Source: Candidatus Latescibacterota bacterium
Lineage (GTDB): Bacteria > Latescibacterota > UBA2968 > UBA8231
DNA: 64,000 bases
Reading direction: 5' to 3'
Assembly: GCA_965221775.1 (NCBI GenBank)
Contig: CBDCSU010000004.1
Location: 320,001-384,000 of the forward strand
The translations under genes and the position numbers were made by a program. Shown here in pieces: positions 21,156 through 47,858 of this stretch (positions within the stretch are counted from its first letter, which is position 1; every line of letters starts with the position of its first letter). Below the pieces are notes generated by a model, which made no database searches, was not told where the DNA came from, and saw only the letters and a list, made by a program, of their open reading frames with translations.

Positions 21156-21156
21156 T

Positions 21157-23058: not shown

Positions 23059-23083
23059 CCCGGACAGGGGTGCCCGTTATCTT
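23055..23083 (+). promoter_or_regulatory. Sigma-70-type promoter for ftsH
   Basis: TTGACC-17 bp-TATCTT. Confidence 0.6.
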
Positions 23084-23153
23084 CGCCCTAAAGGCCATAA
23101 CTCATTCTTTTCCAATACGTTAGGCGCACCCTCCGCCTGCGGCCTCCGGACTG

Positions 23154-25112: not shown

Positions 25113-25154
25113 GCCCTCGCTGTCGGGCGGTCTCCGCCGACAGCGGACAGCGCC

Positions 25155-25619: not shown

Positions 25620-25757
25620 CCTCGGCCTCCTGTGCGGGGTGGGGTGATGCAAGGCAATATAGCAACCCTCGCCAGTCGGGCGCCGGTACGCTCGACGCGT
25701 TGACCTGCGGACCGGGCCTGGCTTAGGTATGCCGCCCTGGAAGGAGTGACAGGACTC

Positions 25758-26522
25758 ATGTGCGCATCCGTCATCGGAGCTCAGCTCTACACCGTTCGGG
25801 ATTTCCTCAAGACCCCGGCCGAGATCCGCGACAGCTTCCGGCGAGTCGCCGAGATCGGTTACAAGGCCGTGCAGTGCTCGGGTCTCGGACCGATCGATGC
25901 GGCGGAGCTGAGAGCCGTCGCCGACGAAGCGGGCCTGAAGATCGCGGCTACCCACACCGACTTCGACCGCATCCGCCGCGAGCCCGGGGCGGTAATCGAG
26001 GAGCATCGGATCTGGGGTTGCCGCCACGTGGCTATCGGCGGCATGCCGGGGGAGTATCGAAGCGCGGAAGGGTTTGCCCGCTTTGCCGGCGAGGCCTCGG
26101 TGGCGGTGCGGCCGCTGATCGACGCCGGACTCACCTTCAGCTACCACAACCACAGCTTCGAGCTCGAGCGTTTCGGGGACCGCACGGGCCTGCAGATCCT
26201 CGCCGAGGAGAGCGACCCGGAGACGTTCTCCTTCGAGGTCGACACCTACTGGATCCAGCACGGCGGCGGGAATCCGGTCACCTGGCTCGAGCGGCTGAAG
26301 GACCGCATGCACATCGTGCACCTGAAGGACCTGGCCATGAAGGGCACGGAGCAACGCTTCGCCGAGGTGGGGGAGGGCAATCTGGAGTGGCCCGCCATCC
26401 TCGCCGCCTGCCGGTCCGCCGACATCGAGTGGTACCTGATCGAGCAGGACCGCTGCGATGGAGACCCCTTCGACAGCCTCAAGACCAGCCTCGACAACCT
26501 GCGGGCCATGGGACTGAACTAG
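25758..26522 (+). CDS. Sugar phosphate isomerase/epimerase (xylose-isomerase-like TIM barrel)
   Basis: QLYTVRD, YHNHSFE, EVDTYW, HLKD, EVGEG, IEQD. Confidence 0.92.
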   Translation: MCASVIGAQLYTVRDFLKTPAEIRDSFRRVAEIGYKAVQCSGLGPIDAAELRAVADEAGLKIAATHTDFDRIRREPGAVIEEHRIWGCRHVAIGGMPGEYRSAEGFARFAGEASVAVRPLIDAGLTFSYHNHSFELERFGDRTGLQILAEESDPETFSFEVDTYWIQHGGGNPVTWLERLKDRMHIVHLKDLAMKGTEQRFAEVGEGNLEWPAILAACRSADIEWYLIEQDRCDGDPFDSLKTSLDNLRAMGLN

Positions 26523-26525
26523 CCG

Positions 26526-27767
26526 ATGAGCACGCTCGAGAAGCCATGGAGAGCGGATCCGGCCAGAGGGGCCGCGTCCACCGTGTTGCAGGTCCCCTGG
26601 GCGGCCTGGTACCGCAAGGAGCCTCTGAGTCTCCGCTTTCCGGAGGGCTGGGAGGTTACGGTTCGGCGGATGCGCGGGGGACCGGACATCGGCGATGCCG
26701 GTATCCGCCAGGCCCTGGCCGAGCCGGTCGGGGCGCTGCCTTTGCGGGAGCACGCCAGGGGCCGGTCCAGCGCCGCGGTTCTGGTGGACGATCTGTCCCG
26801 GCCGACCCCCGCCTTCCGGGTGGTCCCTTACATCCTCGAGGAGCTGCACGCCGCCGGCATCGACGACGACGGCATCACCATCATCTGCGCCCTGGCCGCT
26901 CACCGGCCCATGACCCGGGACGACTTCCTCAAGAAGCTCGGCGCCGACATCGTCGAGCGCTATCGCGTGGTCAACCACAACGCCTACGAGAACCTCGAGT
27001 TCCTCGGGAACACCAGCCTCGGGGTGCCGGTCTTCGTCAACCGCGACCTGATGGCCTGCCAGGTGCGCATCGCGGCGGGCATGATCACGCCTCGCGGCGG
27101 GATGTTCGGCGGCGGCGCCAAGCTGCTGATCCCCGGGGCCTGCGGGCAGCAGACGATTCTGCTCAACCACCGCTACGTCCACGGGGAGGCCTTCCGGCCC
27201 CATCTCGACGAGGTAGCGGGGATGGCCGGCCTCGACTACATCGTCAACCCGCTGCTGAACGAGCGCCTCGAGATCATGGGCCTGGTGGCCGGCGACGTGA
27301 CCGCCGCCTTCGAGCAGGGCTGCCGGTTGGGGGCCGAGCTCTACGGTACTTCCATGCCGGCGGCCGGCACCGTGGACGTCGGCGTCTTCAGCGCCTTCCC
27401 GAAGGACACCGAGCTGTGCCAGGCGGGGCTGGCCCTCGTGCCTCTCGGCAGCTGCCCGCACGACCCGATCGCCGCGGGCGGCACCGTCGTCATCGCCAGT
27501 GCCTGCCCCGAGGGGCTCGGCTGGCACTCCGTCCTCGGCCCGGGGACCGCCCTGCGCGCCCCTCCACAGCCTCCGGCCCACCGCACTCTGGTGTTCTCTC
27601 CGGGAGTGAACCGGTACGACTGCCAGGCCCTGTACGGCGAGCACGTCGGTCTGTTCCGGGAATGGGAGGAGCTCATCGGCCAGTTGGAGGCCATCCACGG
27701 CGGCGGCCCCCGAGTGTCGGTATTCCCCGCCGGGGCCCTGCAGATGGCCGCCACCCGAGACCCATGA
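26526..27767 (+). CDS. LarA (lactate racemase) superfamily protein
   Basis: DDLSRPTP, AAHRPM, NHNA, LGNTSLG.PV.VN, FGGGAKLLIPG, ILLNH, ACPEG.G. Confidence 0.85.
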   Translation: MSTLEKPWRADPARGAASTVLQVPWAAWYRKEPLSLRFPEGWEVTVRRMRGGPDIGDAGIRQALAEPVGALPLREHARGRSSAAVLVDDLSRPTPAFRVVPYILEELHAAGIDDDGITIICALAAHRPMTRDDFLKKLGADIVERYRVVNHNAYENLEFLGNTSLGVPVFVNRDLMACQVRIAAGMITPRGGMFGGGAKLLIPGACGQQTILLNHRYVHGEAFRPHLDEVAGMAGLDYIVNPLLNERLEIMGLVAGDVTAAFEQGCRLGAELYGTSMPAAGTVDVGVFSAFPKDTELCQAGLALVPLGSCPHDPIAAGGTVVIASACPEGLGWHSVLGPGTALRAPPQPPAHRTLVFSPGVNRYDCQALYGEHVGLFREWEELIGQLEAIHGGGPRVSVFPAGALQMAATRDP

Positions 27768-27783
27768 CAACAAGGCGGGAAGC

Positions 27784-28560
27784 GTGCCCCCACTGAAGTC
27801 CTTCGATCTCGATGGCCGGGTGGTGGCCGTCACCGGCGCCGGCCGCGGCATCGGCCGCACCATCGCTCTCGACGCGGTCCGGTCGGGGGCTCGCGTCGCC
27901 GTCGGCAGCCGGACGGTCAGCGAGCTGGAGAGCCTCAAGGAGAGCATCGAGGCCATGGGGGGGGAGTGCTTCGCCCACTTCCTCGACGTGACCGACGTCG
28001 CCTCCATCGAGGCCTTCTTCGAAGCGGTGGACGCCCATTACGAGGGACTCCATGTCCTCGTGAACAACGCCGGCTACAACCAGCTGGGGAAGATCCTCGA
28101 CTACGACGAGGAACTCTACGATCTGATCGTCGATGTCAACCTGAAGAACGTGTTCTTCTGCAGCCAGGCAGCGGCCAGGCGCATGATCGCCCGGGGGATC
28201 CGCGGCAGCATCGTCAACATCTCCTCCCAGGCGGGGGTGGTGGGAGCGCCGGAGCGGGGACCCTACTCGGGCGCCAAGGGCGGGGTGAACAGCCTGACGC
28301 GGACGGCGGCCGCCGAATGGGCCGAGCACGGGATCCGGGTCAATGCCGTGGCCCCCACGGTGACCCGGTCGCCCCTGGCCCAGAGAGCGATGGAGGAGAG
28401 CCAGGCCTTCGCCGACGCCGTGAAGACCAAGAACCTCCTCCGCGGCGACCTGGCCGAGCCGGAGGAGATCTCGGCCCCGGTGATCTTCCTGGCCTCCGAT
28501 GCCGCCAGCATGGTCACCGGCCACGTCCTGGTGGTCGACGGGGGGTGGACCATCGTCTGA
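27784..28560 (+). CDS. SDR family oxidoreductase
   Basis: TGAGRGIG, NNAG, NISS, YSGAK, VDGG. Confidence 0.95.
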   Translation: MPPLKSFDLDGRVVAVTGAGRGIGRTIALDAVRSGARVAVGSRTVSELESLKESIEAMGGECFAHFLDVTDVASIEAFFEAVDAHYEGLHVLVNNAGYNQLGKILDYDEELYDLIVDVNLKNVFFCSQAAARRMIARGIRGSIVNISSQAGVVGAPERGPYSGAKGGVNSLTRTAAAEWAEHGIRVNAVAPTVTRSPLAQRAMEESQAFADAVKTKNLLRGDLAEPEEISAPVIFLASDAASMVTGHVLVVDGGWTIV

Positions 28561-28571
28561 CGGCGGGGCCG

Positions 28572-29702
28572 CTACGGACCGCCTGGAGCGGTCTCCCGCA
28601 GTCTCTCCCGCTGCCAGCCCCGGCGCGCCTCCAGAAGCCCGTCCAGCTCGCCGACGGCGGAGGCCGCGGCGGACTGCGGATCCCTTGCCACATGGGCCAG
28701 CAGCTCGACGAGGGCGGCGGCGTCTTCCACGGCGACGGCTTCGGCCCTGAGCTTCTTCCCGCCGCGGTTGTGGTAGTTCTCCAGGGGCAGGGCCACCGCA
28801 CCGGCCCTCAGGCCCGCCCGGCAAAGGGCCGTCGCTTCGCACGTTCCCCCGTCCATCAGCCGGCGCTGATACCGGAAGGTGGGCCGCTGCCTGCCCAGAT
28901 CCTCGGCCGCCCCCGCCAGGGCGGCGGTGACGGCCGCATCGAAGAGCCAGCGGCGGTCTCCGACCCGGATGACGGGGCCGTCGCCGAGGGGGGCACCCGC
29001 CAGGCTGGAGGAGCATTCGATGTTCACATACAGGGGATTCCGGTCGAGGTGCCCGCCGTCGAGGGCGGCGAGCATCCCCCCGAAGCCGGTCTCCTCGGCC
29101 CGGGTCAGCAGAACGCCGAGGCCCGCGGCCGGCTCGGCGCGCAGGAGCTCGAGGACCGACAGGGCCACGGCCACGCCGGCCAGGTCGTCGCAGGCGCGGC
29201 CGGAGAGCCTTCCGCCGGACAACTCGAAGCCGGCGAGATCCCAGGTTGCGAAGATTCCTGCCGCCTCGGCCTCTGCAACCGGATCGTCCAGGCGCACCCG
29301 AAAGGCGGGCCGGCCGTCCGCGTCGCCCGGGGCCCCCTCCTCCAGGTAGGCCAGCACCCTCCCTCGAGCGACGGGCTCGGCGGACCGGTGGTCGTGCACC
29401 ACCACACCCGCCCCCCGGGTCAACTCGGCGGGAACCCCTCCCAGTGAATGGAAGAACCAATCGCCGCCATCGCCGGCGGCCAGGGCCAGCCCGGGATGGT
29501 CGAGGTGAGCGGTGAGGACGATTCCCGGCGCGGCCGCGCCCAGACGCAGGTGGAGGTTTCCGAAGGGGTCGGACATGCAGTGCAGATCGGGCCGCTCCGA
29601 CACGAACCGCTCCATCTCCGCCAGGACGAGGTGCTCGTGGAAGGGTGCCGTGGGAATGGGGAGGAACCGCCGGGCCATGTCCAGGTAGAGATCGGCAAGC
29701 AC
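28572..29702 (-). CDS. M20/M42-clan zinc metallopeptidase-like hydrolase
   Basis: TAHLDHPG, RACDDLAG, RAEETG, GGTCEA, NYHN. Confidence 0.85.
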   Translation of the reverse strand: MLADLYLDMARRFLPIPTAPFHEHLVLAEMERFVSERPDLHCMSDPFGNLHLRLGAAAPGIVLTAHLDHPGLALAAGDGGDWFFHSLGGVPAELTRGAGVVVHDHRSAEPVARGRVLAYLEEGAPGDADGRPAFRVRLDDPVAEAEAAGIFATWDLAGFELSGGRLSGRACDDLAGVAVALSVLELLRAEPAAGLGVLLTRAEETGFGGMLAALDGGHLDRNPLYVNIECSSSLAGAPLGDGPVIRVGDRRWLFDAAVTAALAGAAEDLGRQRPTFRYQRRLMDGGTCEATALCRAGLRAGAVALPLENYHNRGGKKLRAEAVAVEDAAALVELLAHVARDPQSAAASAVGELDGLLEARRGWQRERLRETAPGGP

Positions 29703-29829: not shown

Positions 29830-31986
29830 GTGAGACGGGACATACCACAGGAGTACAGCGACCATCTGGCCACCCGCCGGGAGCGCGTGCTGGGCGGCGC
29901 CGGCGAGCGCCTCTCCTTCCGTGCCTTCTGGGTCGGCGGCTTCCTCTCCTTCTTTCTCGCCGTAGGCGCCCCCTACGGCAACATGATCATCCGCGGTTCC
30001 TACATGGCCCTCGACTTCAGCACCCCGGGGGCCATCTTCCTCTTCCTGTTCCTCATCGGCCTCCTCAACTGCGCCCTAAAGCTCGCCCGTCAACCTCCGG
30101 TGGCCATCGGTCTCGCCGGCGCGGCGACGGCGGCGTGGCTGGTGGTCTACAGGCCGGTCATCCCCGACCTCGACTTCTATTCCCCGGCCCTGATGATGGC
30201 CACCTTCCTGGTCCTGACCACGTGGGTCAACGTCCCGGTGGTGCTCCGCGGCGGCAGCCTGGCCCTGAACCGCTCGGAGCTGGTCCTGGTCTACGCCATG
30301 CTGCTCATCGTCTCCGCCCTGTGCACCATGGGGCTGGGCGAGCAGATCCTGCCCGTCATCACGGCGATCTTCTACTTCGCCTCGCCGGAGAACCAGTGGG
30401 CGGAGAAGCTCTTTCCCCACTTGCCCGAGCGGGCGATGGTGAACGACGGCACCGACAGCCGCCTGTTCTACGAGGGCCTCTCCGACGCGGAGGACGTGGT
30501 CCCCTACGAGGCCTGGGTGGAGCCCCTCATGTGGTGGGGGATCTTCCTGCTGGCCCTGTACGTGATGATGGTCTCGGTGGCGGTCATCGTGCGGCGCCAG
30601 TGGATGGAGCGCGAGCGCCTGGCCTACCCGATCGCCCAGGTGGGCCTGTCCATGATCCGGTCCGAACACCCCGACCGGGCGGTGAACGGGTTCTTCAAGC
30701 AGCCTCTCATGTGGATCGGGGCGGCCCTGCCCCTGATCGTCGGCAGCCTGATGGCCCTGCACCGCTACTACCCGGAAGTACCGGTGCCGCCGACGAGGTG
30801 GACCCTGGGCTTCATCGGCTACCAGAGCCTGCAGTTGCAGATCAGTTTCGCCATGCTGGGGTTCTCCTACTTCATCAACGCCAACATCGCCGCCGGCATC
30901 TGGTTCTTCCACCTGTTCTCGAAGGTGGAGAAGGAGGCGCTCCTCCTCAGCGGGCTGCAGTCGACCCAGAAGATCAGCTTCGGCGTCTCCGACTATCCCT
31001 TCCTCGGCTACCAGGGGGTGGGGGCGCTGCTGGCCATGGTGGTCGTCGGCCTGTGGGTGGGCCGCGAGCACTATCGAAGGGTGCTGCTCAAGGCCATCGG
31101 CCTGGCCCCCGACGTCAGCGACGACGACGAGATCCTCTCCTACCGGGGGGCGGTGGTGGGGGCCCTGGGTGGGACGGGCGCCATGGCGGCCTGGCTGTGG
31201 TTCATGGGAACCCCCCTGTGGGTGGCCCTGCTCTTCGTCGTTCTGGCGATCCTGATCTTCGTCGGCATCACCCGCATCGTGACCGAGGCCGGCCTGGCGG
31301 CCATCCGCGCGCCGATGATCGCAAGCGAGCTGCTGGTGCAGGGCATGGGCTCCTCCCTGGTCGGCCCCGCAGGGGTGATGAACCTCTCCCTCACCTACAT
31401 CTGGGCCGCCGACATCCGCGTCTTCGTCATGGCCACGGCCTCCAACGCCCTGAAGATGATCGAGGAGATGGAGCCTTCGAACCGGCGCATCGTGTTCTGG
31501 GCGATGATCGCGGCCCTGTTCATCGGTGCCGCCGGATCCCTGTGGATGATCTTCCACATGGCCTACCGGCACGGGGGCATCAACCTGGCGAGCTGGTTCT
31601 TCCAGGGCCTGCCCCGGACCGCATACGACGCGGCCTTGCGCAACATCGAGCCCGAGGGAACCTACTGGCCGGGCCTCGGCTTCTTCGGCGGCGGCGCCGG
31701 GGCGATGGTGGCCATGATGTGGCTGCGCCAGCGCCTGCCCTGGTGGCCCGTCCATCCCATCGGCTTTCCCATCGGCGCCAACAGCCTGATGAACTACGTC
31801 TGGTTCAACGTCTTCCTGGCGTGGCTCATCAAGCGCGCGATCCTGCGTTACGGCGGCGCCAATGCCTACCAAGGCAGTCAGCACTTCTTCCTGGGGCTGA
31901 TCGCCGGCCAGGTTCTGTGCAACGGCCTGTGGCTGGTGATCGACTACTTCACCGGCAAGGTGGGGAACTCCCTTTTCTGGATATGA
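29830..31986 (+). CDS. DUF6785/DUF6784-type polytopic membrane protein, copy 1 (OPT-related)
   Basis: Many TMs; LNRSELVLVY, FYEGL, RRQWMERERLAYP, RIVTEAG, WWPVHPIGF, FFLGLIAG. Confidence 0.85.
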   Translation: MRRDIPQEYSDHLATRRERVLGGAGERLSFRAFWVGGFLSFFLAVGAPYGNMIIRGSYMALDFSTPGAIFLFLFLIGLLNCALKLARQPPVAIGLAGAATAAWLVVYRPVIPDLDFYSPALMMATFLVLTTWVNVPVVLRGGSLALNRSELVLVYAMLLIVSALCTMGLGEQILPVITAIFYFASPENQWAEKLFPHLPERAMVNDGTDSRLFYEGLSDAEDVVPYEAWVEPLMWWGIFLLALYVMMVSVAVIVRRQWMERERLAYPIAQVGLSMIRSEHPDRAVNGFFKQPLMWIGAALPLIVGSLMALHRYYPEVPVPPTRWTLGFIGYQSLQLQISFAMLGFSYFINANIAAGIWFFHLFSKVEKEALLLSGLQSTQKISFGVSDYPFLGYQGVGALLAMVVVGLWVGREHYRRVLLKAIGLAPDVSDDDEILSYRGAVVGALGGTGAMAAWLWFMGTPLWVALLFVVLAILIFVGITRIVTEAGLAAIRAPMIASELLVQGMGSSLVGPAGVMNLSLTYIWAADIRVFVMATASNALKMIEEMEPSNRRIVFWAMIAALFIGAAGSLWMIFHMAYRHGGINLASWFFQGLPRTAYDAALRNIEPEGTYWPGLGFFGGGAGAMVAMMWLRQRLPWWPVHPIGFPIGANSLMNYVWFNVFLAWLIKRAILRYGGANAYQGSQHFFLGLIAGQVLCNGLWLVIDYFTGKVGNSLFWI

Positions 31987-32001
31987 GGGCAGCGAGGGCC
32001 G

Positions 32002-34155
32002 GTGAATAGAGCCATCCCACAGGAGTACGGCGACCACCTGGCGGCGCGCCGGGACCGCGCCCTGGGGGACAGCGGTGAGCGCCTCTCCTTCCGCGCTCTC
32101 TGGGTGGGCGGCTTCCTCTCCTTCTTCCTCGCCGTGGGCGCCCCCTACGGCAACATGATCCTCCGCGGGTCCTTCATGGCCATGGACTTCAGCACCCCGG
32201 GGGCGATCTTCCTCTTCCTCTTTCTCATCGGCCTTCTCAACTGCGCCTTCAAGCTCGCCCGGCAACCTCCCGTGGCTCTCGGTCTCGCCCTCTCGGCGAC
32301 CGCGGCCTGGCTGGTCGTCTACCGGCCGGTCATCGCCGACCTCGACTACCACTCCCCGGGCCTGATGATGGCCACCTTCCTGGTGCTGACCACCTGGCTC
32401 AACCTGCCCGTGGTGCTGCGCGGCGGCAGCCTGGCCCTCAACCGCTCCGAGCTGGTCCTTGTCTACGCCATGCTGCTCATCGTCTCCGCCCTGTGCACCA
32501 TGGGCCTGACCGAGCAGATCCTGCCGATCATCACGGCGATCTACTACTTCGCCACCCCGGAGAACCGCTGGGCCGAGAAGCTCTTTCCCCACCTGCCGGA
32601 GCGGGTGATGGTGAACGACGGCACGGACAGCCGCCTGTTCTACGAGGGCCTCGGTCCGGAGGAGGCGATTCCATACGCCTCGTGGGTGGAGCCTCTCCTC
32701 TGGTGGGGGATCTTCCTGCTGGCCCTCTACGTGATGATGGTTTCGGTGGCGGTGATCCTTCGCCGCCAGTGGATGGAGCGCGAGCGACTGGCCTACCCGA
32801 TCGCCCAGGTGGGCCTCTCCATGATCCGGTCGGAGCACGCCGACCGGGCGGTGAACGGCTTCTTCAAGCAGCCCGTCATGTGGCTGGGAGCGGCCCTGCC
32901 CCTGCTCCAGGGCAGCGTGCGGGGCCTCAAGTTCTATGAGGTGCCCGTGCCCACGACGCGCCTGGAGTGGCATCTGCCCTTCATCGGCCGCCAGACCCTG
33001 CATCTGAGCGTCAACTTCGCCGTCCTCGGGTTCTCCTACTTCATCAACGCCAACATCGCCGCCGGCATCTGGGTCTTCCACCTGCTCTCCACCCTGGAGA
33101 AGCAGGTGCTCATCCTCACGGGGGTGCAGTCATCGCAGAAGATCGGCCTCGGCGTCTCCGACTACCCCTTTCTCGGGTACCAGGGGGTGGGGGCGCTGCT
33201 GGCCATGGTGATCGGTGTCCTGTGGGTGGGCCGCGAGCACTGGCGGCGAGTGCTGCTCAAGGCCATTGGACAGGCGCCCGAGGTCAGGGACGACGACGAG
33301 ATCCTGTCCTACCGGGGCGCCGTGGCCGGAGCCCTGGGAGGCACCGCCGTCATGACGGCCTGGCTGTGGTACATGGGGACGCCCCTGTGGGTGGCCCTGC
33401 TCTTCATCCTGGTGGCGGTTCTGATCTTCATCGGAATCACGCGGGTCGTGGCCGAGGCCGGGCTGGCGGTCGTCCGCGGGCCGATGATCGCCGGCGACCT
33501 CGTGGTGCAGGGAGTCGGTTCCTCCCTGATCGGCCCCGCGGGGGTGGTGAACCTCTCCCTGGCCCACGTCTGGGCCGCCGACATCCGTGTCTTCGTCATG
33601 GGCACCGCCTCCAACGCCCTCAAGATGATCGAGGAGATGGAGCCCCGGAACCGCCGCACCGTGTTCTGGGCCATGATCGCCGCCCTCTTCATCGGCGCCG
33701 CCGGCTCCATGTGGATGATCTTTCACATGGCCTATCTCCACGGGGCCCTCAACCTGAACGGCTGGTTCTTCCAGGGGCTGCCCAGGTACGCCTACGGTGC
33801 GGCCCTGCGCAACATGGAGCCCCAGGGGACGTACTGGCCCGGGCTGGGCTTCTTCGGCAGCGGGGCCGGCGCCATGGTCATCCTCATGTGGCTGCGCCAG
33901 CGCCTTCCCTGGTGGCCCGTCCATCCCATCGGTCTTCCCGTGGCCGCCACCCCCATGATGAACCGCCTCTGGTTCAACGTCTTCGCGGCCTGGGTCGTCA
34001 AGCGCGCCGTCCTGCGCTACGGCGGCGCCACCGCCTTCAACCGCAGCCAGCCCTTCTTTCTCGGGCTGATCAGCGGCCAGGTCCTGTGCAGTGGAGGCTG
34101 GCTGGTGATCGACTACTTCGCAGGCGCTGTGGGGAACTACCTTTACGAGATATGA
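32002..34155 (+). CDS. DUF6785/DUF6784-type polytopic membrane protein, copy 2 (tandem paralog)
   Basis: Colinear with copy 1 and with the same motifs; roughly 80% identical by eye. Confidence 0.85.
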   Translation: MNRAIPQEYGDHLAARRDRALGDSGERLSFRALWVGGFLSFFLAVGAPYGNMILRGSFMAMDFSTPGAIFLFLFLIGLLNCAFKLARQPPVALGLALSATAAWLVVYRPVIADLDYHSPGLMMATFLVLTTWLNLPVVLRGGSLALNRSELVLVYAMLLIVSALCTMGLTEQILPIITAIYYFATPENRWAEKLFPHLPERVMVNDGTDSRLFYEGLGPEEAIPYASWVEPLLWWGIFLLALYVMMVSVAVILRRQWMERERLAYPIAQVGLSMIRSEHADRAVNGFFKQPVMWLGAALPLLQGSVRGLKFYEVPVPTTRLEWHLPFIGRQTLHLSVNFAVLGFSYFINANIAAGIWVFHLLSTLEKQVLILTGVQSSQKIGLGVSDYPFLGYQGVGALLAMVIGVLWVGREHWRRVLLKAIGQAPEVRDDDEILSYRGAVAGALGGTAVMTAWLWYMGTPLWVALLFILVAVLIFIGITRVVAEAGLAVVRGPMIAGDLVVQGVGSSLIGPAGVVNLSLAHVWAADIRVFVMGTASNALKMIEEMEPRNRRTVFWAMIAALFIGAAGSMWMIFHMAYLHGALNLNGWFFQGLPRYAYGAALRNMEPQGTYWPGLGFFGSGAGAMVILMWLRQRLPWWPVHPIGLPVAATPMMNRLWFNVFAAWVVKRAVLRYGGATAFNRSQPFFLGLISGQVLCSGGWLVIDYFAGAVGNYLYEI

Positions 34156-37100
34156 CGGGATCCCTCTTCCGACCTGCCCGGGCGCTCACCGCCTGGCTGC
34201 TGCTGTCTGCCGCGGCCTTTGCCGACGGCCCCGACCTGTGGGCCATCGCCGACGAGGGGGAGCGTCTGCGGGCGAGCGTGGAGTACCTCTCCGGCCTCGG
34301 CTCCCGCATCAGCGGACACGAGGGGGCCCGGCGCGCCGGGGACTGGATCGAGCGCCAGCTGGCGGCCCTCGACCTGGGCTCCGTGCACAGGGAGACCTTC
34401 CCGATCACCGTGCCGGTGGAGCTGGGCGGCCGCAGCCGCCTGGAGGTCGTCGACACCGGTGAGGAGTTCGACATGCACGGGTTGTGGCCGAACGGCCCGC
34501 GCACGACGACGACCCCGCCCGAAGGCCTGGAGGGCCAGCTCACCTGGGTCGGCAACGGCGAGTACACCGACTTCGAGGGCCGGCAGCTGCACGGCCGCGT
34601 AGTCCTGATGGAGTTCAACACCTGGGACCGCTGGGTGCGGCTGGCGGCGCTCGGCGCCAGGGCGGTGATCTTCATCGAGCCGGCGGAGACTTCCTACCCC
34701 CAGACCGAGGACAAGAGCCTCATCGTTCCCGTCGATGTGCCGCGGTTCTGGGTCGGGGCAGAGGCGGGGCGGCAGCTCCGGCGAAGACTGGAGGGGGGAG
34801 CCGAGATCGGCGTCCGCCTGCACAGCCGGATGGACTGGCTCGAGCGCCCCTGCGCCAACCTCTGGGTGGAGATCGCCGGTGCCGACACGGCCCTGGCGCG
34901 GCAGCGGATCGTCGTTCAGAGCTACTACGACGGGACCTCGATCGCGCCCTCCCTGGCGCCCTCGGCCGAGGCTTCCAGCGGCGCCGCGGCGATGCTGGAG
35001 CTGGCCCGCCATCTGCGCGACCATCGGCCCGCACGGACGGTGGTTCTCCTGCTCACCGGCTCCCACTTCCAGGACCAGGCGGGGATCGTCGACTTCGTCG
35101 AAAGCCACACCCGCAAGTCGGACTTCCACGCCCCTTTCACCGACTCGATGGCCGTCGATCTGTACCTCGGTCTCGACCTGTCCACCAAGACCGACCAGGT
35201 GGCGATCTGGAACAACACCACCAGCTTCGACCTCAAGCGGTTCTACGTCCCCTTCGGGCGGCGCTACACCCGGTACGCCGAGGAGACGGCCGCCGAGCTC
35301 GGACGGCGGGGCGAGCCGCTGCTGCTCAACGGCATCTCTCCCATCCGGGGGATGGACTGGTCCACTTTCGTCCCCGACGGTGCCATCGTCGACACCCGCA
35401 TGGCCATGCTCGCCGGCCAGGTGGCCCTCTCCTTCGTCACCGCCCACGACGCCCGCTTCCCCCTGGCCACCCCCCTCGACACGCCGGGCCGGATGAACCT
35501 CGGCAACCTCCGGAGCCAGTCGCGGTTCCTCAAGGGCGTGCTGTCCCGGTCCTTCGACGACCCCGACCTGTTCACGGGTCTGGAGGACTTCGGCCCCGTT
35601 CTCAAGGACCAGCTGCGCAGCCACACCGTTCGCGTGCGGGCCTTCCCGCGCCGCAGCCAGATCCCCGACCGCCCCGTGGCCGACGCCCTGGTGATGGTGG
35701 GATGGGGAATGCACAAAGGCCTGAACATGAGCCGGGCCTACCTGACAGACGAGTTGGGCGACGTCACCGTGTCGGGACTGGTGGTCGGCGCAACCACGGT
35801 GGTGGCCTATGTCCTCGACCGGGAGACAGGGGAGGTCGTCTACGCTCCGGACCTGAGCGAGCGCGGCCAGAAGCACCACGGCAAGCCCCTGGCCAGCGGC
35901 CGCATGAACTGGAGCATCCGCTGGAACAAGGACAGCAAGCCCCTCGTCGTCTTCCCGAGCATGCAGAGGACCCTCTTCGGGCTGACCCATCCCAACCAGC
36001 TGGTGGGGCTGTCCACCCTGACGATGCTCGGCAGCGGCGGCATCGCGCCCCGCCAGTTCGGCTACGCCTTCGGCCGCACCCTGAGCAGCAACCTCTGCGT
36101 CGTCTTCGCGCCCCAGGAGGCGGCCGTCGAGGATCCCCGCGTGAAGATGCTCTTCGGCGACATGCTGCTGATCAACAGCCCGGGGGGCACGTCGGAGCAG
36201 GAGGCCAAGGGCGCGGGGTACGACCTGGCGGTGGACGACCTGCTGCCCTCGGAGTTGTTCGCCCTGCGCGACACCTGGAGGCTCAACGAGGCCCGCCTGG
36301 CCACGATGCGCTCCCACGCCATCGAGAACCAGCGCATCACCCGCCTCCACGAGGCCGGCCGCCGGTTCCTCGCCAGGGCCGAGGACTCGCTGCGGGAGGG
36401 GCGCTGGCGGGACTACGTCGCCGAGGTCCGCTCCGGCCTGGGGGTGACGTTGAAGGCCTATCCCCAGGTGAAGGCCACCCTCAACGACGTGATCAAGGGC
36501 ATCGTCTTCTTCCTGGCCCTGGTGGTGCCCACCGCCTTCTTCGGGGAGCGCCTGCTCTTCGCCGCCTCCGACATCCGCTGGCAGATCGGGGGGTTCTCCG
36601 TCCTCCTGCTGATCGTGTGGATCCTGATCTCCCAGGTCCATCCGGCCTTCGACATCGCCCACCCCCTGATCATCCTCCTCGCCTTCTTCATCATGGCCAT
36701 GGCCGTCTTCGTGCTGGGCATGGTATCGAGCCGGTTCAACCGGTTCATCAAGGAGTACCAGGCCGAGAGGGCCAAGGTCCACGAGACCGACATCAGCCGC
36801 GTCAGCGCCGCCTACGCCGCCTTCATGCTCGGCATCTCCAACATGCGCAGGCGCAGGCTGCGCACCGGACTGACCCTGCTCACCCTGACCTTGCTCACCT
36901 TCACCGTCCTCTCCTTCACCTCCGTCCGGCCCGAGGTGTGGTACTTCGTCTTTCCCCTCCGCCACGAAGGGGCCTACACGGGGGCCCTGATCCGCGACCG
37001 CGGCTGGAGCTCCCTGCCGGAGACCACCCTCGAGTACGCCCGCTCCCACTTCGAGGAGCACGGCCTCGTGGTACCGCGGAACTGGTATATCACCTACGAC

Positions 37101-38603
37101 GACGAGGAGAAGAAGTACACGGAGATCCGGCGCGACGGCCGGATGGTGCGCGCCACCGGTCTCCTTGGCCTCACCTCCGAGGAGCAGCGGGTGACCGGAC
37201 TGGCCTCGACCCTTGCGGCGGGGAGCTGGTTCGAGGGTGGCGGCGAGTCGACCTGCCTGATCTCGGAGGGCATGGCGGAAGGTCTGGGTATCGACCCCGG
37301 AGAAGTAGGCCGGGCCGAGGTGCAGGTCTTCGGCAAGAGGCTGACCGTGGCCGGAATCTTCTCCGCCGATGCCTTTGACGAAGTGCGGGATCTGGACGAC
37401 GAGCCCCTCAGTCCGGCGGACTTCCAGCTGTCGAGCATGCAGGCCCTGGGTCCCATGGAGGGGCCGCAGATGACGGTGCAAGAGGAGGAGGAGGCGCAAG
37501 AGGTGCGGCCCTTCGTCCACCTGGACCCCGCCAACGTGCTCATCCTGCCCTACGAGACGCTGAAGGTCGCCTTCGGCGACCTGCGGTCCGTGGCCATCCG
37601 CTTCGACGAGGGCGCCCCGGCCCAGGAGCTGATCGAGGAGTTCCTGCAGCGCATCTCCGGCACCGTCTTCGCCGGCCTTCCGGACGAAGAGGGCCGCATC
37701 AGGGTCGTCTCGTACACCTCCCTCGGCGGCACCTCCGTCGAAGGTCTGGCGGCCCTCACCGTGCCCATGCTGATCGCCGCCCTCATCGTCCTCAACACGA
37801 TGATGGGCGCCGTGTACGAACGCTTCCGGGAGATCGGCATCTACTCCTCCGTGGGGCTGGCGCCGATGCACATCGCCCTGCTCTTCATCGCCGAGGCCTG
37901 CGTGTACGCGGTCATGGGGGTGACCCTGGGCTACCTCATCGGCCAGATCCTCGGCCGGGGGCTGGTGCACTTCGACCTGCTGGGGGGCATGAACCTCAAC
38001 TACTCCTCCTTTGCCGCCATCCTCGCCGCCTGCATGGTCATGGGCGTGGTGCTGCTGTCCACCATCTACCCGGCCCGCGTCGCCTCCCGGTCCGCCGTTC
38101 CCGACACGGTGCGCCGCTGGCGGCCGCCACCGCCCGACGGCGACCGCTGGGAGTTCGACTTCCCCTTCATGGTGGGCCAGAGCGAGGTGGTGGGGATCTG
38201 CGGGTTCCTGGCCAACTTCTTCAGCGCCTACAGCGAGGAGTCGATCGGCGACTTCTACGCCGACAAGGTACGGATCACCACCGAGGAGACACCGGCGGGC
38301 AGGGAGTACGCCGTGCAACTGCTCTTGTGGCTGGCCCCCTTCGACATGGGCGTGAGCCAGTTCCTGCAGATCGAGCTGGCGCCCACCTCCACGCCGGGGG
38401 TCTTCGACGTGCAGATCTACATCCACCGGGTGAGCGGCCAGGACACCTACTGGCAGCGCGTCAACCGCCGCTTCGTCAACCACCTGCGCAAGGAGTTCCT
38501 GATCTGGCACACCCTCGACGCGGAGTCCAAGGCCTTCCACGACCAGAGCGCGCGAGAGCGGATCGCGGCTGAGGCGGAGGCGGAAGTGGAGGCGGCGACC
38601 TAG
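34152..38603 (+). CDS. Large fusion: signal peptide + degenerate M28/PA-like domain + TM bundle + MacB/FtsX-like ABC permease
   Basis: ATGA overlap at 34152 (ORF track start 32967 is spurious); SRISGHEG, SYYDG, SSGAAAMLELAR; NMRRRRLRTGLT; VYERFREIGIYSSVGL; YPARVAS. Confidence 0.85.
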   Translation: MTGSLFRPARALTAWLLLSAAAFADGPDLWAIADEGERLRASVEYLSGLGSRISGHEGARRAGDWIERQLAALDLGSVHRETFPITVPVELGGRSRLEVVDTGEEFDMHGLWPNGPRTTTTPPEGLEGQLTWVGNGEYTDFEGRQLHGRVVLMEFNTWDRWVRLAALGARAVIFIEPAETSYPQTEDKSLIVPVDVPRFWVGAEAGRQLRRRLEGGAEIGVRLHSRMDWLERPCANLWVEIAGADTALARQRIVVQSYYDGTSIAPSLAPSAEASSGAAAMLELARHLRDHRPARTVVLLLTGSHFQDQAGIVDFVESHTRKSDFHAPFTDSMAVDLYLGLDLSTKTDQVAIWNNTTSFDLKRFYVPFGRRYTRYAEETAAELGRRGEPLLLNGISPIRGMDWSTFVPDGAIVDTRMAMLAGQVALSFVTAHDARFPLATPLDTPGRMNLGNLRSQSRFLKGVLSRSFDDPDLFTGLEDFGPVLKDQLRSHTVRVRAFPRRSQIPDRPVADALVMVGWGMHKGLNMSRAYLTDELGDVTVSGLVVGATTVVAYVLDRETGEVVYAPDLSERGQKHHGKPLASGRMNWSIRWNKDSKPLVVFPSMQRTLFGLTHPNQLVGLSTLTMLGSGGIAPRQFGYAFGRTLSSNLCVVFAPQEAAVEDPRVKMLFGDMLLINSPGGTSEQEAKGAGYDLAVDDLLPSELFALRDTWRLNEARLATMRSHAIENQRITRLHEAGRRFLARAEDSLREGRWRDYVAEVRSGLGVTLKAYPQVKATLNDVIKGIVFFLALVVPTAFFGERLLFAASDIRWQIGGFSVLLLIVWILISQVHPAFDIAHPLIILLAFFIMAMAVFVLGMVSSRFNRFIKEYQAERAKVHETDISRVSAAYAAFMLGISNMRRRRLRTGLTLLTLTLLTFTVLSFTSVRPEVWYFVFPLRHEGAYTGALIRDRGWSSLPETTLEYARSHFEEHGLVVPRNWYITYDDEEKKYTEIRRDGRMVRATGLLGLTSEEQRVTGLASTLAAGSWFEGGGESTCLISEGMAEGLGIDPGEVGRAEVQVFGKRLTVAGIFSADAFDEVRDLDDEPLSPADFQLSSMQALGPMEGPQMTVQEEEEAQEVRPFVHLDPANVLILPYETLKVAFGDLRSVAIRFDEGAPAQELIEEFLQRISGTVFAGLPDEEGRIRVVSYTSLGGTSVEGLAALTVPMLIAALIVLNTMMGAVYERFREIGIYSSVGLAPMHIALLFIAEACVYAVMGVTLGYLIGQILGRGLVHFDLLGGMNLNYSSFAAILAACMVMGVVLLSTIYPARVASRSAVPDTVRRWRPPPPDGDRWEFDFPFMVGQSEVVGICGFLANFFSAYSEESIGDFYADKVRITTEETPAGREYAVQLLLWLAPFDMGVSQFLQIELAPTSTPGVFDVQIYIHRVSGQDTYWQRVNRRFVNHLRKEFLIWHTLDAESKAFHDQSARERIAAEAEAEVEAAT

Positions 38604-38606
38604 ACC

Positions 38607-41309
38607 ATGGCCGAGAACGAGAACGGAAAGAAGAGCCTGCGCCAGCGACTGCGGAAGACGCAGTGGCAGGAGGTGGAGGAGTACCGCGCCCTGCTGGAGC
38701 CGGCCGAGCAGTTCGAGAGCGGCTTCACGATGCGCACCATCATCGGCGTCATCTTCATCTCCCTGGTCATGACCCCGGGGGAGATGTACCTGGGCCTGGT
38801 CACCGGCGGGGGCATCGGCGCCGCGGCCCAGTGGGTGACGGTGATCCTCTTCCTGGAGGTGGCCAAGCGCTCCTTCACCTCCCTGCGCCGGCAGGAGATC
38901 TACCTGCTGGTGTACGTGGCCTCGGCCCTGGTGGCCCGCGAAGAAGGGGCCTTCCTCGACCTGCTCTTCCGGCAGTACTTCGTGCGCTCCGCCGAGGCCG
39001 AGCAGTTCGGGATATCCAAGCTGCTGCCGTTCTGGTACGTCCCCCATCCCGAGTCGCCGGCCCTGGCGGCGCGCACCTTCCTGCACCGCGACTGGCTGTG
39101 GCCGATCGCGCTGCTGATCATGGGCACCATCGTCGGCCGCATCAGCTGGTTCACCTCCGGGTACCTGCTCTTCCGCCTGACCTCGGACCGGGAGCGTCTG
39201 CCCTTTCCCACGGCGCCCATGTCGGCCCTCTCGGCCATGGCTTTGGCCGAGGAGAGCGGCGGCGAGAAGGAGACCTGGAAGTGGCCCGTGTTCTCCCTGG
39301 GAGGGGTCATGGGCGCCCTCTTCGGGATGGTCTATGTGGGCATTCCCACCCTGACCGAGGTCCTGCAGGGGACGAAGATCATGCTGATCCCCATCCCCTG
39401 GTGGGACCTGACGCCGTACCTGGGCAACCTCCTGCCGGCCGCGCCCATAGGGATCACCCTCAACCTCGGCATCATCTTCGGCGGTCTCCTGGCCCCGTTC
39501 TGGGGGATCGTCGGGTCCAGCCTAGGCGTGATCGTGCACACCGCGGTCAGCCCCTGGCTGCACTCTCAAGGCCTGCTGCCCGGCTGGTCCCTGGGGATGG
39601 GCCTGATCGAGACCTCGATCGTCACCGGCATCGATTTCTGGAGGGCCTTCTCCATCGGCATCACCGTGGCGGTGACGATCATCAGCTTCTACCAGCTCTT
39701 CGCCACCGCCCGCCAGCGCCGCCTGGCCACGCGCGACGAGTTCCTCGGAGAGAAACGCGAGTACCCGAGGACCTGCGTCCACGACGGCTGCAACGCCCCC
39801 TCGCAGGTCCGCGGCTACTGCATCAAGCACCTCGGACGGGGCGACTTCAACCTCTGGGTCTGCGTCGTCCTCTTCGCCGTGGCCGCCCTCTATCCCATCG
39901 TCCTGGCCAAGACCCTCTTCCCGGCCCTGGTGACCACGGGCCTGCTCCTGACGTTCTTCGGCATCGCCTTCGTGTACGCGCCGATCATGTCCTTCGTCTC
40001 GGCCCGTCTCGACGGGCTCATCGGCCGCGAGGTGTCGATCCCGTACATCAACGAGGCGATCATCTTCCTCACCGGGTACCGGGGCGTGGACATCTGGTTC
40101 GTTCCCTTCCCGACCCGCAACTACGGGGGCCACGCCGAGGGCTTCCGCGTCGTCGAGCTGACGGGCATGCGCTTCACCAGCCTGCTCCATGCCGAGCTGT
40201 TCATGCTGCCCATCGTCTTCGGCGTGAGCCTCATGTACTGGAGCTTCCTCTGGCGCCTGGGGCCCATACCCTCGGAGAGCTACCCCTACGCCCAGCTCAT
40301 GTGGCCCCTGCAGGCTTTCAACCAGGCCCTGTTCTACTCCAGCACCATGTACAACAAGATGTGGCGGGCGGGGGAGGAGGTGGACGGGCGCCGCGTCGCA
40401 GGCGGCGAAGTGGTCTGGAGCCCCTCCAACCTGCAGGACCGGGAGTGGTGGTACTGGCGAGTGCGCGCCACGGACGATGTGCACGTGCCCGATCAGGAAA
40501 GGCGGGAGTACGGCGCGTGGTCGAAGACGGGGTACTTCTACACCAACTTCGGCGACGGCACACCGCCGTCAGAGGTGCCGGAACGCGTCCTCGACCTGCT
40601 CGCCGACGCGAAGCGGAGGGCGGAGCTGAAAAGCAATCCGTCCCGCGCTCCCCCCGAGCCCGCGGCCCTCGGACACACGGCGGAGCTGCTCTGGCCCGCG
40701 CCCGGCGAGGTCGTGGACACGGCGAACCCGAACTTCCACGCCCGGGTGACGGGGGTGGCGGACTCCCTCGAGCTCTACTTCGAGGTGGACCGACTGCCCA
40801 CCTTCGACGGGGAGTTCCTGCAGCGCTCCTCGGACTGGCCGCTCATGTTCACCGCCTTGTGGCGGGACGTTCGCTACACGGGCGACCGTCGGGACAACGA
40901 CGGCGACGGCCTCGTCGACGAGGAGCTCTACAACCTCGAGGACGACGACGGCGACGGGCTGACCGACGAGGACTTCCACCACCCCCTCGATGGCTACAAG
41001 TGGCCGATCATGGTGGGGGGCGCCGGCTTCGGGCTGCTGATGTACTTCGGCCTCTCCTTCCTCGGATTGCCTGTCTTCCTGATCTGGGGGTACGTGCAGA
41101 GCGTTCTGGGGATACCCACGAGTCTGCTGCCCCAGCTGGCCGGGGCCCTGCTCGCCCGGTTCTATTTCTGGAAGCGCTACGGACGGCAGGAGTGGCGCCG
41201 GTACGCCATGGTGCTCACCGTCGGCTTCGGCGTCGGCATGTCCCTCATCGGCATGTTCTGCGCCGCCCTCGCCATGGTCGCCAAGGCGGTCTCGGCCCTG
41301 CGCTACTGA
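38607..41309 (+). CDS. OPT-like oligopeptide transporter homolog with soluble inserts
   Basis: FESGFTMRTIIG, LRRQEIYLL, DRERLPFP, GYRGVDIWF, PIPS..YPY; many TMs. Confidence 0.8.
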   Translation: MAENENGKKSLRQRLRKTQWQEVEEYRALLEPAEQFESGFTMRTIIGVIFISLVMTPGEMYLGLVTGGGIGAAAQWVTVILFLEVAKRSFTSLRRQEIYLLVYVASALVAREEGAFLDLLFRQYFVRSAEAEQFGISKLLPFWYVPHPESPALAARTFLHRDWLWPIALLIMGTIVGRISWFTSGYLLFRLTSDRERLPFPTAPMSALSAMALAEESGGEKETWKWPVFSLGGVMGALFGMVYVGIPTLTEVLQGTKIMLIPIPWWDLTPYLGNLLPAAPIGITLNLGIIFGGLLAPFWGIVGSSLGVIVHTAVSPWLHSQGLLPGWSLGMGLIETSIVTGIDFWRAFSIGITVAVTIISFYQLFATARQRRLATRDEFLGEKREYPRTCVHDGCNAPSQVRGYCIKHLGRGDFNLWVCVVLFAVAALYPIVLAKTLFPALVTTGLLLTFFGIAFVYAPIMSFVSARLDGLIGREVSIPYINEAIIFLTGYRGVDIWFVPFPTRNYGGHAEGFRVVELTGMRFTSLLHAELFMLPIVFGVSLMYWSFLWRLGPIPSESYPYAQLMWPLQAFNQALFYSSTMYNKMWRAGEEVDGRRVAGGEVVWSPSNLQDREWWYWRVRATDDVHVPDQERREYGAWSKTGYFYTNFGDGTPPSEVPERVLDLLADAKRRAELKSNPSRAPPEPAALGHTAELLWPAPGEVVDTANPNFHARVTGVADSLELYFEVDRLPTFDGEFLQRSSDWPLMFTALWRDVRYTGDRRDNDGDGLVDEELYNLEDDDGDGLTDEDFHHPLDGYKWPIMVGGAGFGLLMYFGLSFLGLPVFLIWGYVQSVLGIPTSLLPQLAGALLARFYFWKRYGRQEWRRYAMVLTVGFGVGMSLIGMFCAALAMVAKAVSALRY

Positions 41310-42391
41310 CGCCTTCGGCCGGAGGGCTGATCTCCTGGACTGGTCGCGCCAGTGGCCGGCGGTCCCTCCTCCCGGCGCCAGCGGCGCCCCTGCAGGAACG
41401 CCGGCAGTCCGACGGCCAGGTAGGTGAGGTTGGCCAGGGCGTGGACGACGGTGGCGCAGGCCATGGCCGCCGCCAGGGGAACGGCGAAGAGGACGTGGAG
41501 GGAGTAGCCGTAGAAGTAGTGGTACGGTCCCGTGCCCGCCGGTGCCGGGATCACCATTCCGATCGATGACACGGCCATGATGACGAGGGCCTCCGCCGTC
41601 CCGAGGGACCAGGGGGGGCCGTCGAAGCCGAAGGCCACGTACGACTGGTAGATGATGAGGATGTAGGCCAGGTTCAGCAGGATGGAGCTGACCACGACCT
41701 CGGCCAGGGCAGAGGCGGACCGGAGGGCCACCAGCCCGTCAACGAAACTCCGGAGCATGCCTCCCAGGCGGGCCGCCAGGCCTTCCGACAGCCGGCCCGT
41801 CATGGCTTCCAGGACGCCGATGCCGCGGCCGCCGAAGGTGTAGGCGCCTGCCATGGCGACGGCGACGGCGACGCAGGCGGCCAGGAGACAGAGCTTCGCT
41901 TCCGCCAGGGACAGGGTGAAGGTGATTCCCCCGAGTTCGGTCTCCCAGGGGAAGAGAGCGGCCACCCGCCCCGGCACCACCGCCAGGGAGAGGGCCAGGA
42001 GCGAAGCCAGGCACAGCAGATCCAGGGCCCGCTCCACCACCACCGTGCCGAGGACGGCGCTGATGCTGGCGCCGCGGCGCCACTTGAGGCTGAGGGCGCG
42101 CGCTGCTTCGCCGGCCCGCGGCAGGGCGATGTTGGCGCTGTAGCAGACGCCGAGGGCCAGGGTGGCGTCGAGGACGGTCACCGTGGGGGCCACCGGGCGC
42201 AGCAGCACGATCCAGCGCCAGCCGCGCAGCACCAGGGTGAGCACCGTGGTCGCCGCCATGGCCGCCATCCAGCCGGGAGAGACCGCCCGAGCCGCCGACC
42301 ACAGGGCGCCCGCGTCGATGCCTCGGAAGGCCCAGTAGAGAAACAGGGCCATCAGACCGAGACCGACGACGTACCTGGAGAGGAACTTCAC
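41303..42391 (-). CDS. Lysylphosphatidylglycerol synthase TM / flippase-like (UPF0104) protein
   Basis: LRGWRW..LL, NIALPRAGEAAR, TVVVERALD, PAPAGTGPYH. Confidence 0.88.
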   Translation of the reverse strand: MKFLSRYVVGLGLMALFLYWAFRGIDAGALWSAARAVSPGWMAAMAATTVLTLVLRGWRWIVLLRPVAPTVTVLDATLALGVCYSANIALPRAGEAARALSLKWRRGASISAVLGTVVVERALDLLCLASLLALSLAVVPGRVAALFPWETELGGITFTLSLAEAKLCLLAACVAVAVAMAGAYTFGGRGIGVLEAMTGRLSEGLAARLGGMLRSFVDGLVALRSASALAEVVVSSILLNLAYILIIYQSYVAFGFDGPPWSLGTAEALVIMAVSSIGMVIPAPAGTGPYHYFYGYSLHVLFAVPLAAAMACATVVHALANLTYLAVGLPAFLQGRRWRREEGPPATGATSPGDQPSGRRRQ

Positions 42392-45018: not shown

Positions 45019-45150
45019 AGTCTCGTGATCTGGGGTCGAAGAAGTGGCCGAGGACCGGAGCAAGATCATAAGGATTCCCCTCCACAATCGCTACCGCCAC
45101 CGTGCCCGGCGTGGACACCCCCGGGCGCCTCTCGGAACCGCGGGCCACGG

Positions 45151-46557: not shown

Positions 46558-46561
46558 GGCG

Positions 46562-47857: not shown

Positions 47858-47858
47858 G

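Follow-up and report, generated by a model that had tools for sequence, protein, structure and literature searches.

Here we report a cluster of four large membrane-protein genes, designated A to D, which lies at positions 29,830 to 41,309 of a 64,000-nucleotide stretch of DNA from Candidatus Latescibacterota bacterium (GenBank assembly GCA_965221775.1, contig CBDCSU010000004.1, positions 320,001 to 384,000). This whole stretch is called the window, and positions refer to it unless another contig is named. Gene C encodes a giant protein with an FtsX-type module, as found in ABC (ATP-binding cassette) systems of type VII, and genes A, B and D encode permease-like proteins for which sequence comparison and structure prediction point to the fold of the OPT/YSL transporters. 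The cluster was characterised by family searches, structure models and surveys of gene neighbourhoods in related genomes and metagenomes.

All four genes are located on the plus strand and encode proteins of 718, 717, 1483 and 900 amino acids. Direct reading of the junctions shows a TGA codon, 15 nucleotides and a GTG codon between A and B, a 4-nucleotide overlap (ATGA, gap -4) between B and C, and a TAG codon, 3 nucleotides and an ATG codon between C and D. The sizes, the common orientation and the gaps of 15, -4 and 3 nucleotides given in an initial annotation of the window agree with these readings, and translation may be coupled across the junctions. The G + C content of the window is about 68%, and many spurious open reading frames occur because of this high value; the G + C content at third codon positions is 0.84–0.94 in each of the four genes, matching that of real genes of the same genome.

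Gene D has no significant match to any Pfam or NCBIfam family, and Pfam OPT does not match it. Its family comprises 899 clusters at 50% identity (homologues at E ≤ 1e-3), and Pfam OPT is matched (E ≤ 0.1) by 22 of 61 aligned diverse members, with a best E of 1.3e-17. Sequence comparison of D and of the D-family profile with the chains of the PDB yielded nothing usable. An AlphaFold model of D (predicted local distance difference test, pLDDT, 84.6; predicted template modelling score, pTM, 0.83) was matched by Foldseek to the barley transporter HvYS1 (7wst, E 7.5e-7; a second HvYS1 entry, E 4.3e-6); the entry that followed had E 0.11. VIA-align likewise placed the two HvYS1 entries first (Z 18.0 and 17.2; 548 and 554 residues aligned; root-mean-square deviation, rmsd, of the best alignment 4.6), followed by an entry at Z 5.5. 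On the evidence of this model, D has the OPT/YSL fold. The lower VIA-align rows (Z 5–5.5) cover only residues 581–742 and consist only of Ig-like domains; the beta-sandwich at this site is an insert that is probably periplasmic. Relatives of D bear PDZ, WD40, Reg_prop or FGE-sulfatase domains, the PDZ domain being situated at residues ~750–900 in the two PDZ forms that were scanned. A Cys/His loop at residues 388–408 (39768–39830) weakly resembles the zinc finger of WRKY19 (E 0.06; in a paralogue, 4e-4); this loop, modelled with low confidence, may be a cytoplasmic metal site.

Proteins A and B both match DUF6785 (A: E 5e-112, 375.3 bits; B: E 2e-110, 370 bits) and DUF6784 (101.7 and 96.3 bits, respectively; E about 1e-28), in this order and above the cut-offs, and the two domains together span their full length. 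Two copies of A are also present in the closest relative (locus L033). Both domain families are without a described function, and no paper naming DUF6785 or DUF6784 was found in the part of the literature that was searched. The genome (5.4 Mb) carries 21 DUF6785/DUF6784 genes, most of them with no C gene nearby; hence the family probably acts alone as well. Plain BLASTP does not link A to D at a significant level (E 1.3), and a Pfam scan of the 21 DUF6785 paralogues gave no match to OPT. A profile-profile comparison with hhalign of the D family (61 rows) and these 21 paralogues aligned 562 columns (98.4%, E 5.5e-15). The same alignment brings into register the motif pairs LNRSELVLVY/LRRQEIYLLVY and MERERLAYP/SDRERLPFP, which the initial annotation had pointed out as common to the DUF6785-type and OPT-like proteins, so the likeness of A and D extends beyond chance. 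Since A and B are homologous to D, and D itself is modelled with the OPT/YSL fold, we infer that A and B have the OPT fold as well; the OPT-like character proposed for all three proteins is thus upheld, by a model matching only HvYS1 in the case of D and by homology in the case of A and B.

For protein C, hydropathy indicates a signal peptide, ~750 periplasmic residues, three helices, a four-helix FtsX module and ~170 cytoplasmic residues, a topology without internal contradiction. The module consists of a first transmembrane helix (TM1), a periplasmic core domain (residues 926–1193, ~270 residues) and TM2–4, which include a loop with the sequence ERFREIG. Pfam FtsX (PF02687) matches residues 1202–1313 (E 1.2e-10; 41.9 bits, cut-off 25.5), and PF12704 is matched by relatives of C; the NCBIfam equivalogs of MacB, LolC/E, FtsX and ADOP gave 16–21 bits, at cut-offs of 250–966. 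With a model of the C-terminal half, the best Foldseek match was MacB (5gko, E 2.3e-15), and 52 matches were obtained at E ≤ 1e-3, of which the 35 listed are all type VII ABC permeases or their periplasmic domains. VIA-align gave MacB (Z 17.5), YtrF (16.9), HrtB (16.1) and FtsX (8tzj, Z 15.9, rmsd 3.4), and aligned 176 residues with the periplasmic domain of MacB (3ftj, Z 14.2, rmsd 3.3); no ABC ATPase chain was among the 50 matches listed. The large periplasmic domain that had been ascribed to the FtsX-type subunit is borne out by the ~750 periplasmic residues, to which the MacB-type core domain is added. The three extra helices (residues 777–860) are conserved within the C family. The cytoplasmic domain yielded only tied VIA-align matches (Z 8–8.8; helix-grip, Aha1- and KA1-like), and a fold assignment was dropped because of these ties at Z ~8. 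The genome holds five C paralogues; a protein atlas search returned additional clusters from Latescibacterota only, with scores under 0.9.

The N-terminal ectodomain of C is related to M28 peptidases by descent. Pfam Peptidase_M28 (PF04389) matches C below its cut-off (E 0.0035; 17.5 bits, cut-off 21.3) and reaches 26.1 bits in two relatives; the profile of the N-terminal family matches the PDB structures 2ek8 (E 3.8e-15), YwaD (1.3e-11), Nicalin (8e-5) and transferrin receptor (0.02), over the PA domain plus the first half of the M28 domain. In the alignment to 2ek8 and YwaD, the His of the HxD motif is replaced by Tyr258, the region of the bridging Asp corresponds to PGAE273 (the Asp being shifted, or replaced by E273), and the Glu-Glu pair to His305-Phe306, positions to which we attribute their usual catalytic and zinc-binding roles; the last two zinc ligands fall beyond the aligned part. 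The ectodomain is thus M28-like, judging from its sequence, and fails the catalytic definition. Because canonical zinc and catalytic residues are lost, it is read as a binding module and not as a peptidase, so that of the M28-FtsX fusion named in the initial annotation the FtsX module and the M28-like descent stand and the canonical catalytic positions do not. Residues Y258, D260, E273 and H305 show no or almost no variation within the C family, and the H305-F306 replacement is likewise conserved; for this reason the ectodomain possibly contains a modified binding site, which may be a metal site.

The neighbourhoods of C and D were surveyed from both sides. In the C-centred survey, the best 80 among 558 relatives from species-representative genomes, almost all of which are labelled as metagenome-assembled genomes of Latescibacterota or Gemmatimonadota, were scanned with hidden Markov models of the three families. 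The D-centred survey comprised 80 metagenome loci (39–74% identity) found with a 14-row alignment of close D relatives. A DUF6785-type or D-type gene was present within 3.5 kb and on the same strand in 80/80 C-centred loci, in the orders ACD (31 loci), CA (20), AC (13) and CD (7), with AAC (2), CDA (2), AACD (1) and C with A 3.2 kb upstream (4) as rarer forms. Conversely, C was found in 51 of the 54 D-centred loci with at least 2.5 kb of sequence upstream of D; the others are two loci with a truncated C at the contig edge and one (L150) without C within 10 kb. In 17 of the 80 C-centred loci, a single open reading frame encodes C and, behind it, A, both at full length. Independent gene calls contain proteins of 2105–2143 amino acids among the C homologues listed (7 of 120), and the two that were scanned consist of C followed by DUF6785/DUF6784. 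A C-A open frame of 2208 amino acids in the genome under study was rejected as a frame overlap in high-GC DNA, since C stops before A. The genome also carries five D paralogues, each of which adjoins an FtsX-type gene, and every C gene in it adjoins D, a DUF6785 gene, or both.

The functional link between C and the OPT-fold genes is therefore real. The co-occurrence of the families anticipated by the initial annotation is confirmed; a general partnership of the FtsX-type protein with three OPT-related proteins holds in so far as A or D is present in every C-centred locus, and not for D itself, which is kept in only 41 of the 80 C-centred loci. That the four genes encode independent transporters which share an operon and have no joint function is highly improbable. 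Such an arrangement would fit the 16 of 21 DUF6785 genes that are located away from any C in the genome and the 39 C-centred loci that lack D, but it does not fit the OPT-superfamily gene kept beside C throughout and in several gene orders, the in-frame C-A fusions, the retention of C in the D-centred loci, or the FtsX-type neighbours of all five D paralogues.

The fifth D paralogue and a DUF6785 gene adjoin a canonical MacB-type permease and an ATPase. This cluster (contig C6, 229458–239484) encodes a DUF4920-like protein, the MacB-type permease, the ABC ATPase, a 903-amino-acid FG-GAP/ASPIC protein, the D paralogue and the DUF6785 paralogue. Downstream of C-A in locus L055, this permease appears again together with the ATPase, which is 91% identical, before the flank ends.

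Candidate motor genes were found beside C in distant relatives. An ABC query used as a control found 63 high-scoring segment pairs in the genome. Of the D-centred loci, 28 have a complete C together with 2 kb or more of sequence upstream of the cluster; 17 of these encode a small FtsX protein and an ABC ATPase directly upstream (order smallFtsX-ATPase-C-A-D), and three further D-centred loci have small FtsX and ATPase genes downstream. The ATPases and permeases of the 17 loci of the upstream type and of two of the downstream type all (19/19) have their best match in one adjacent pair of genes of the Latescibacterota genome (contig C6, about 2503809–2505340). The ATPases match with 325–359 bits and 64–72% identity (runner-up at most 263 bits) and the permeases with 106–177 bits (runner-up at most 70); a second ATPase copy in one downstream-type locus has the same best match with a narrow lead (273 versus 271 bits). 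The permease of the C6 pair is an FtsX-domain protein of ~240 amino acids with a very short periplasmic loop, and the ATPase is LolD/MacB-like, below the cut-off of every NCBIfam equivalog. The pair is flanked by a glycosyltransferase gene on one side and an amidohydrolase gene on the other, and no C is located near it. The association with an ATPase, for which a survey had been suggested, is seen in cis in 17/28 loci; the genome studied here has a candidate partner pair in trans, and none at the A-D locus itself.

The distribution of the pair was compared with that of C. Each of five complete relatives (5/5) has exactly one strong orthologue of the permease (60–80% identity), which lies no less than 370 kb away from the C loci that the survey sampled. 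In the phylum as a whole, C was found in 138 of 151 sampled genomes (1–9 copies each among the matches listed) and in none of the 13 genomes of one family (f10). The permease orthologue (E ≤ 6e-42) is present in 131/138 C-positive and 0/13 C-negative genomes; the latter give only generic FtsX matches (~1e-22 to 1e-27). The whole C-terminal half of C, including the cytoplasmic domain, is kept in 17/17 loci with a cis motor, which argues against the domain standing in for the ATPase. The loop ERFREIG, which links TM2 to TM3, does not vary within the C family and recurs in the small FtsX partner; from the MacB and LolCDE structures we take it to be the coupling helix that meets the ATPase. A complex prediction for residues 890–1330 of C with the small FtsX partner scored 0.25 and 0.29 (mark 0.32) and is evidence neither way.

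We consider it probable, though not certain, that the cluster belongs to a type VII ABC machine which works with OPT-fold permeases, genes A to D encoding the substrate-handling half and the motor being encoded elsewhere. In this machine, C would be the large FtsX-type subunit, with the PA/M28-like ectodomain as its periplasmic binding module. Together with the small FtsX protein it would form the membrane pair, as LolC does with LolE, and the LolD-type ATPase would drive this pair. Proteins A, B and D would be OPT-fold permeases that associate with C as fixed partners, presumably by physical assembly, and the motor pair on contig C6 would presumably be common to the five C paralogues of the genome.

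Several observations weigh against this interpretation. The Pfam scan of the genes on either side of A-D revealed no ABC ATPase, and on the contig more than 170 kb separate the cluster from the closest ABC_tran match. An ABC ATPase gene occurs in the flanks of only 6 of the 80 C-centred loci, and 11 of the 28 D-centred loci have no ATPase within 2.1–5.3 kb upstream. The seven C-positive genomes without the permease orthologue are 60–89% complete, and the co-occurrence of permease and C counts as a single evolutionary event, and so as weak support, because the 13 C-negative genomes belong to one family; the trans pair could also have a separate function. The model of C (residues 760–1483) is of moderate quality (pLDDT 70.3, pTM 0.43). 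For A and B, no direct OPT match was obtained, and comparison of A and of its family profile with the PDB chains gave nothing usable. Fusion and adjacency attest a functional link and are not the demonstration of a complex. Finally, four metatranscriptome runs (three studies) contain 10–20% of the sampled words of the interval 31500–41400, and metatranscriptome contigs (≥95% identity) cover parts of all four genes, one of them spanning the A-B junction; these contigs are compatible with expression, and DNA carried over into the libraries is a possible source as well. Uncovered parts of the stretch, and the B-C and C-D junctions, which none of the listed contigs spans, carry no weight. Of the six C-centred loci with an ATPase gene, the one scanned (L049) has a MalK-type sugar importer beside a fucosidase, and its ABC genes were set aside as unrelated; those at L053 are alike by layout only.

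The scarcity of ATPase genes would suit a system that is independent of an ATPase, in which C is a passive receptor or scaffold (a pseudo-transporter joined to a pseudo-peptidase) feeding proton-driven OPT-fold carriers and the distant FtsX/ATPase pair serves otherwise. C would then be comparable to a binding protein tethered to a secondary transporter. The flanks of 74/80 C-centred loci, like those of A-D, are free of ATPase genes, up to nine C copies (among the matches listed) face one candidate motor per genome, and C bears a cytoplasmic domain of its own after TM4; the ADOP family, likewise expanded in this genome, also offers a precedent for orphan FtsX permeases. We nevertheless regard such a system as unlikely, since the architecture of C, cytoplasmic domain included, is unchanged in all relatives with a cis motor, the ERFREIG loop is preserved as described above, and the motor orthologue is single-copy, 60–80% identical across genomes and missing from the family that lacks C. 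Contig C6 also carries ~13 duplicated FtsX-type (ADOP-like) permease genes (2131823–2159266), with one ABC ATPase match inside the array (2145260) and another ~9 kb outside; the array is again an instance in which this genome has many FtsX permeases for each ATPase.

Returning to the ABC machine with a motor in trans, its direction of transport may be considered. Type VII ABC systems and OPT carriers are commonly treated as distinct classes of transporter whose logic is opposite, the former being ATP-driven mechanotransducers that move no substrate through the membrane and the latter proton-driven importers. The ectodomain of C and the insert of D would bind a periplasmic ligand, and ATP-driven movement of the periplasmic domains of C would pass it to the OPT-fold permeases for import. 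The ligand would most likely be a peptide or protein fragment; the PA/M28-like modules, the PDZ domains of D relatives and the M42-type neighbour (Table 1) hint weakly at peptides and at import, and the PqqD-like family described below hints weakly at peptides. In a bolder form, which we put forward only tentatively and would not expect to hold, one motor docks interchangeably onto several giant receptors (five in this genome and up to nine in relatives), each connected, in some cases by fusion, to its own OPT-fold channel, so that ATP-powered capture is combined with secondary-carrier uptake of polymer fragments.

Three gene families recur 3' of D on the same strand in 24–31 of the 80 D-centred loci. 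Scanning of a single locus (L154, 12187–14100) gave no Pfam match for two of them (212 and 303 amino acids) and showed the third to be PqqD-like. This third family, of the peptide-recognition type, is found in 30/80 D-centred loci (one member scanned) and would be in line with an outward-acting system, in which the OPT-fold proteins deliver a product, peptide-like or lipid-linked, to the membrane's outer face and the FtsX module extracts or releases it, for export, envelope assembly or ribosomal-peptide maturation, as in Lol, MacB or HrtBA. A PpiC-type rotamase gene directly upstream of C at a paralogous locus of the genome points the same way, as does the weak likeness of the cytoplasmic domain of C to lipid- or ligand-binding helix-grip folds (Z ~8, tied). 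To our knowledge, the type VII ABC systems characterised so far all act outward or on targets in the periplasm, and the structures matched by C are of this type (MacB, LolCDE, HrtBA, FtsEX and YtrEF); this speaks against import, and it keeps an outward-acting role a live rival. We still judge such a role quite improbable, because the characterised OPT/YSL proteins are importers and the sole structural match of D is the iron-phytosiderophore importer HvYS1. Moreover, neither a precursor peptide nor a modifying enzyme was noticed among the scanned neighbours of A-D, and all three recurrent families, including the PqqD-like one, are absent from the window. In Latescibacterota-type loci, genes encoding DnaJ-domain, CesT/YbjN-like, PspA/IM30, amine oxidase and spermidine-synthase-like proteins occur 3' of D (14–22 of the 160 surveyed loci; e.g. 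L041, 17634–22422); these DnaJ/PspA-type genes are absent from the window and probably represent a neighbouring conserved operon.

Table 1. Coordinates of the A-D cluster, of protein domains within it and of the adjoining peptidase-like gene (positions in the window).
Feature	Positions	Strand	Basis
Gene A, 718-aa DUF6785+DUF6784 membrane protein	29830..31986	+	Pfam; OPT fold inferred via homology to D
Gene B, 717-aa tandem paralogue of A	32002..34155	+	80% identity to A
Gene C, 1483-aa giant FtsX-type protein	34152..38603	+	Pfam, hydropathy
C residues 8-300, PA plus M28-like ectodomain	34173..35051	+	Family profile vs PDB
C residues 777-860, three extra transmembrane helices	36480..36731	+	Hydropathy scan; family conservation
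C residues 907-1310, one MacB/FtsX-type module	36870..38081	+	Pfam FtsX, Foldseek, VIA-align
C residues 1330-1455, cytoplasmic alpha/beta domain	38139..38516	+	Model pLDDT ~85 here
Gene D, 900-aa divergent membrane protein, OPT/YSL fold (modelled)	38607..41309	+	AlphaFold model vs HvYS1
D residues 581-742, inserted beta-sandwich (Ig-like), then acidic DxDxDG-like repeats	40347..40832	+	VIA-align
Divergent M42/M20-type aminopeptidase gene	28572..29702	-	Pfam Peptidase_M42 E 1.8e-15; context only, system membership not claimed

An M42-like gene is located upstream and on the opposite strand in 17 of the 160 surveyed loci (one representative scanned), and a convergent LPG_synthase_TM gene follows D on its 3' side. 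Further away, positions 20983–28560 encode a 2-oxoacid dehydrogenase E2, FtsH, a xylose-isomerase-like TIM barrel, a LarA-like protein and an SDR protein, and positions 43579–47995 an adenylosuccinate-lyase-like protein, a carrier of the CitMHS/sulfate-symporter type and a TRAP DctM protein. Sixteen sequencing runs contain at least half of the sampled words of the interval 31500–41400, at 71–97%; of these runs, 10 are labelled as sponge or marine metagenomes; this fits a sponge-associated organism.

The components encoded by A-D belong to known superfamilies; no published description of a partnership between FtsX-type and OPT-fold proteins was found in the literature that the search covered, supplementary files aside. 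A conserved and sometimes covalent partnership of type VII ABC and OPT proteins, if true, would be a new way to build a transporter. It would also provide the first functional handle on DUF6785/DUF6784 and on the large OPT-like family of D, and a natural setting in which to test whether a single ABC motor serves several membrane partners. Since sponge and marine metagenome runs are the main source of its DNA, the system may be of importance to the feeding of these uncultured bacteria.

Compared with the type VII ABC systems (MacB, LolCDE, FtsEX, HrtBA and YtrEF), C shares the four-helix module, the MacB-type core between TM1 and TM2, and the TM2-TM3 loop, and the small FtsX protein and LolD-type ATPase encoded in cis in relatives suggest a heterodimer like that of LolC and LolE. 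Unlike these systems, C adds ~750 periplasmic residues, three helices and a cytoplasmic domain, and its presumed partner is almost without a periplasmic loop. In this phylum the motor genes are distant and single-copy whereas C is multi-copy, and the constant, sometimes fused neighbours of C are OPT-fold permeases. With the OPT/YSL family (PF03169; barley YS1, 7WSR/7WST), the model of D shares an alignment over 548–554 of ~600 residues; D differs in its low identity to HvYS1 (~13%), the 160-residue beta-sandwich insert and the Cys/His loop. The OPT/YSL carriers known so far act singly, while A, B and D are tied to, or in relatives fused with, an FtsX-type protein. The lack of canonical catalytic positions in the ectodomain of C is shared with Nicalin and the transferrin receptor, but in contrast to these and to other M28-like proteins (2EK8, YwaD) the ectodomain is part of one protein with a membrane transporter module. 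An extracytoplasmic binding module that would feed a permease with a secondary-carrier fold recalls the TRAP/TTT systems; this is an analogy without homology, and the binding module described here is part of an ABC-type mechanotransducer.

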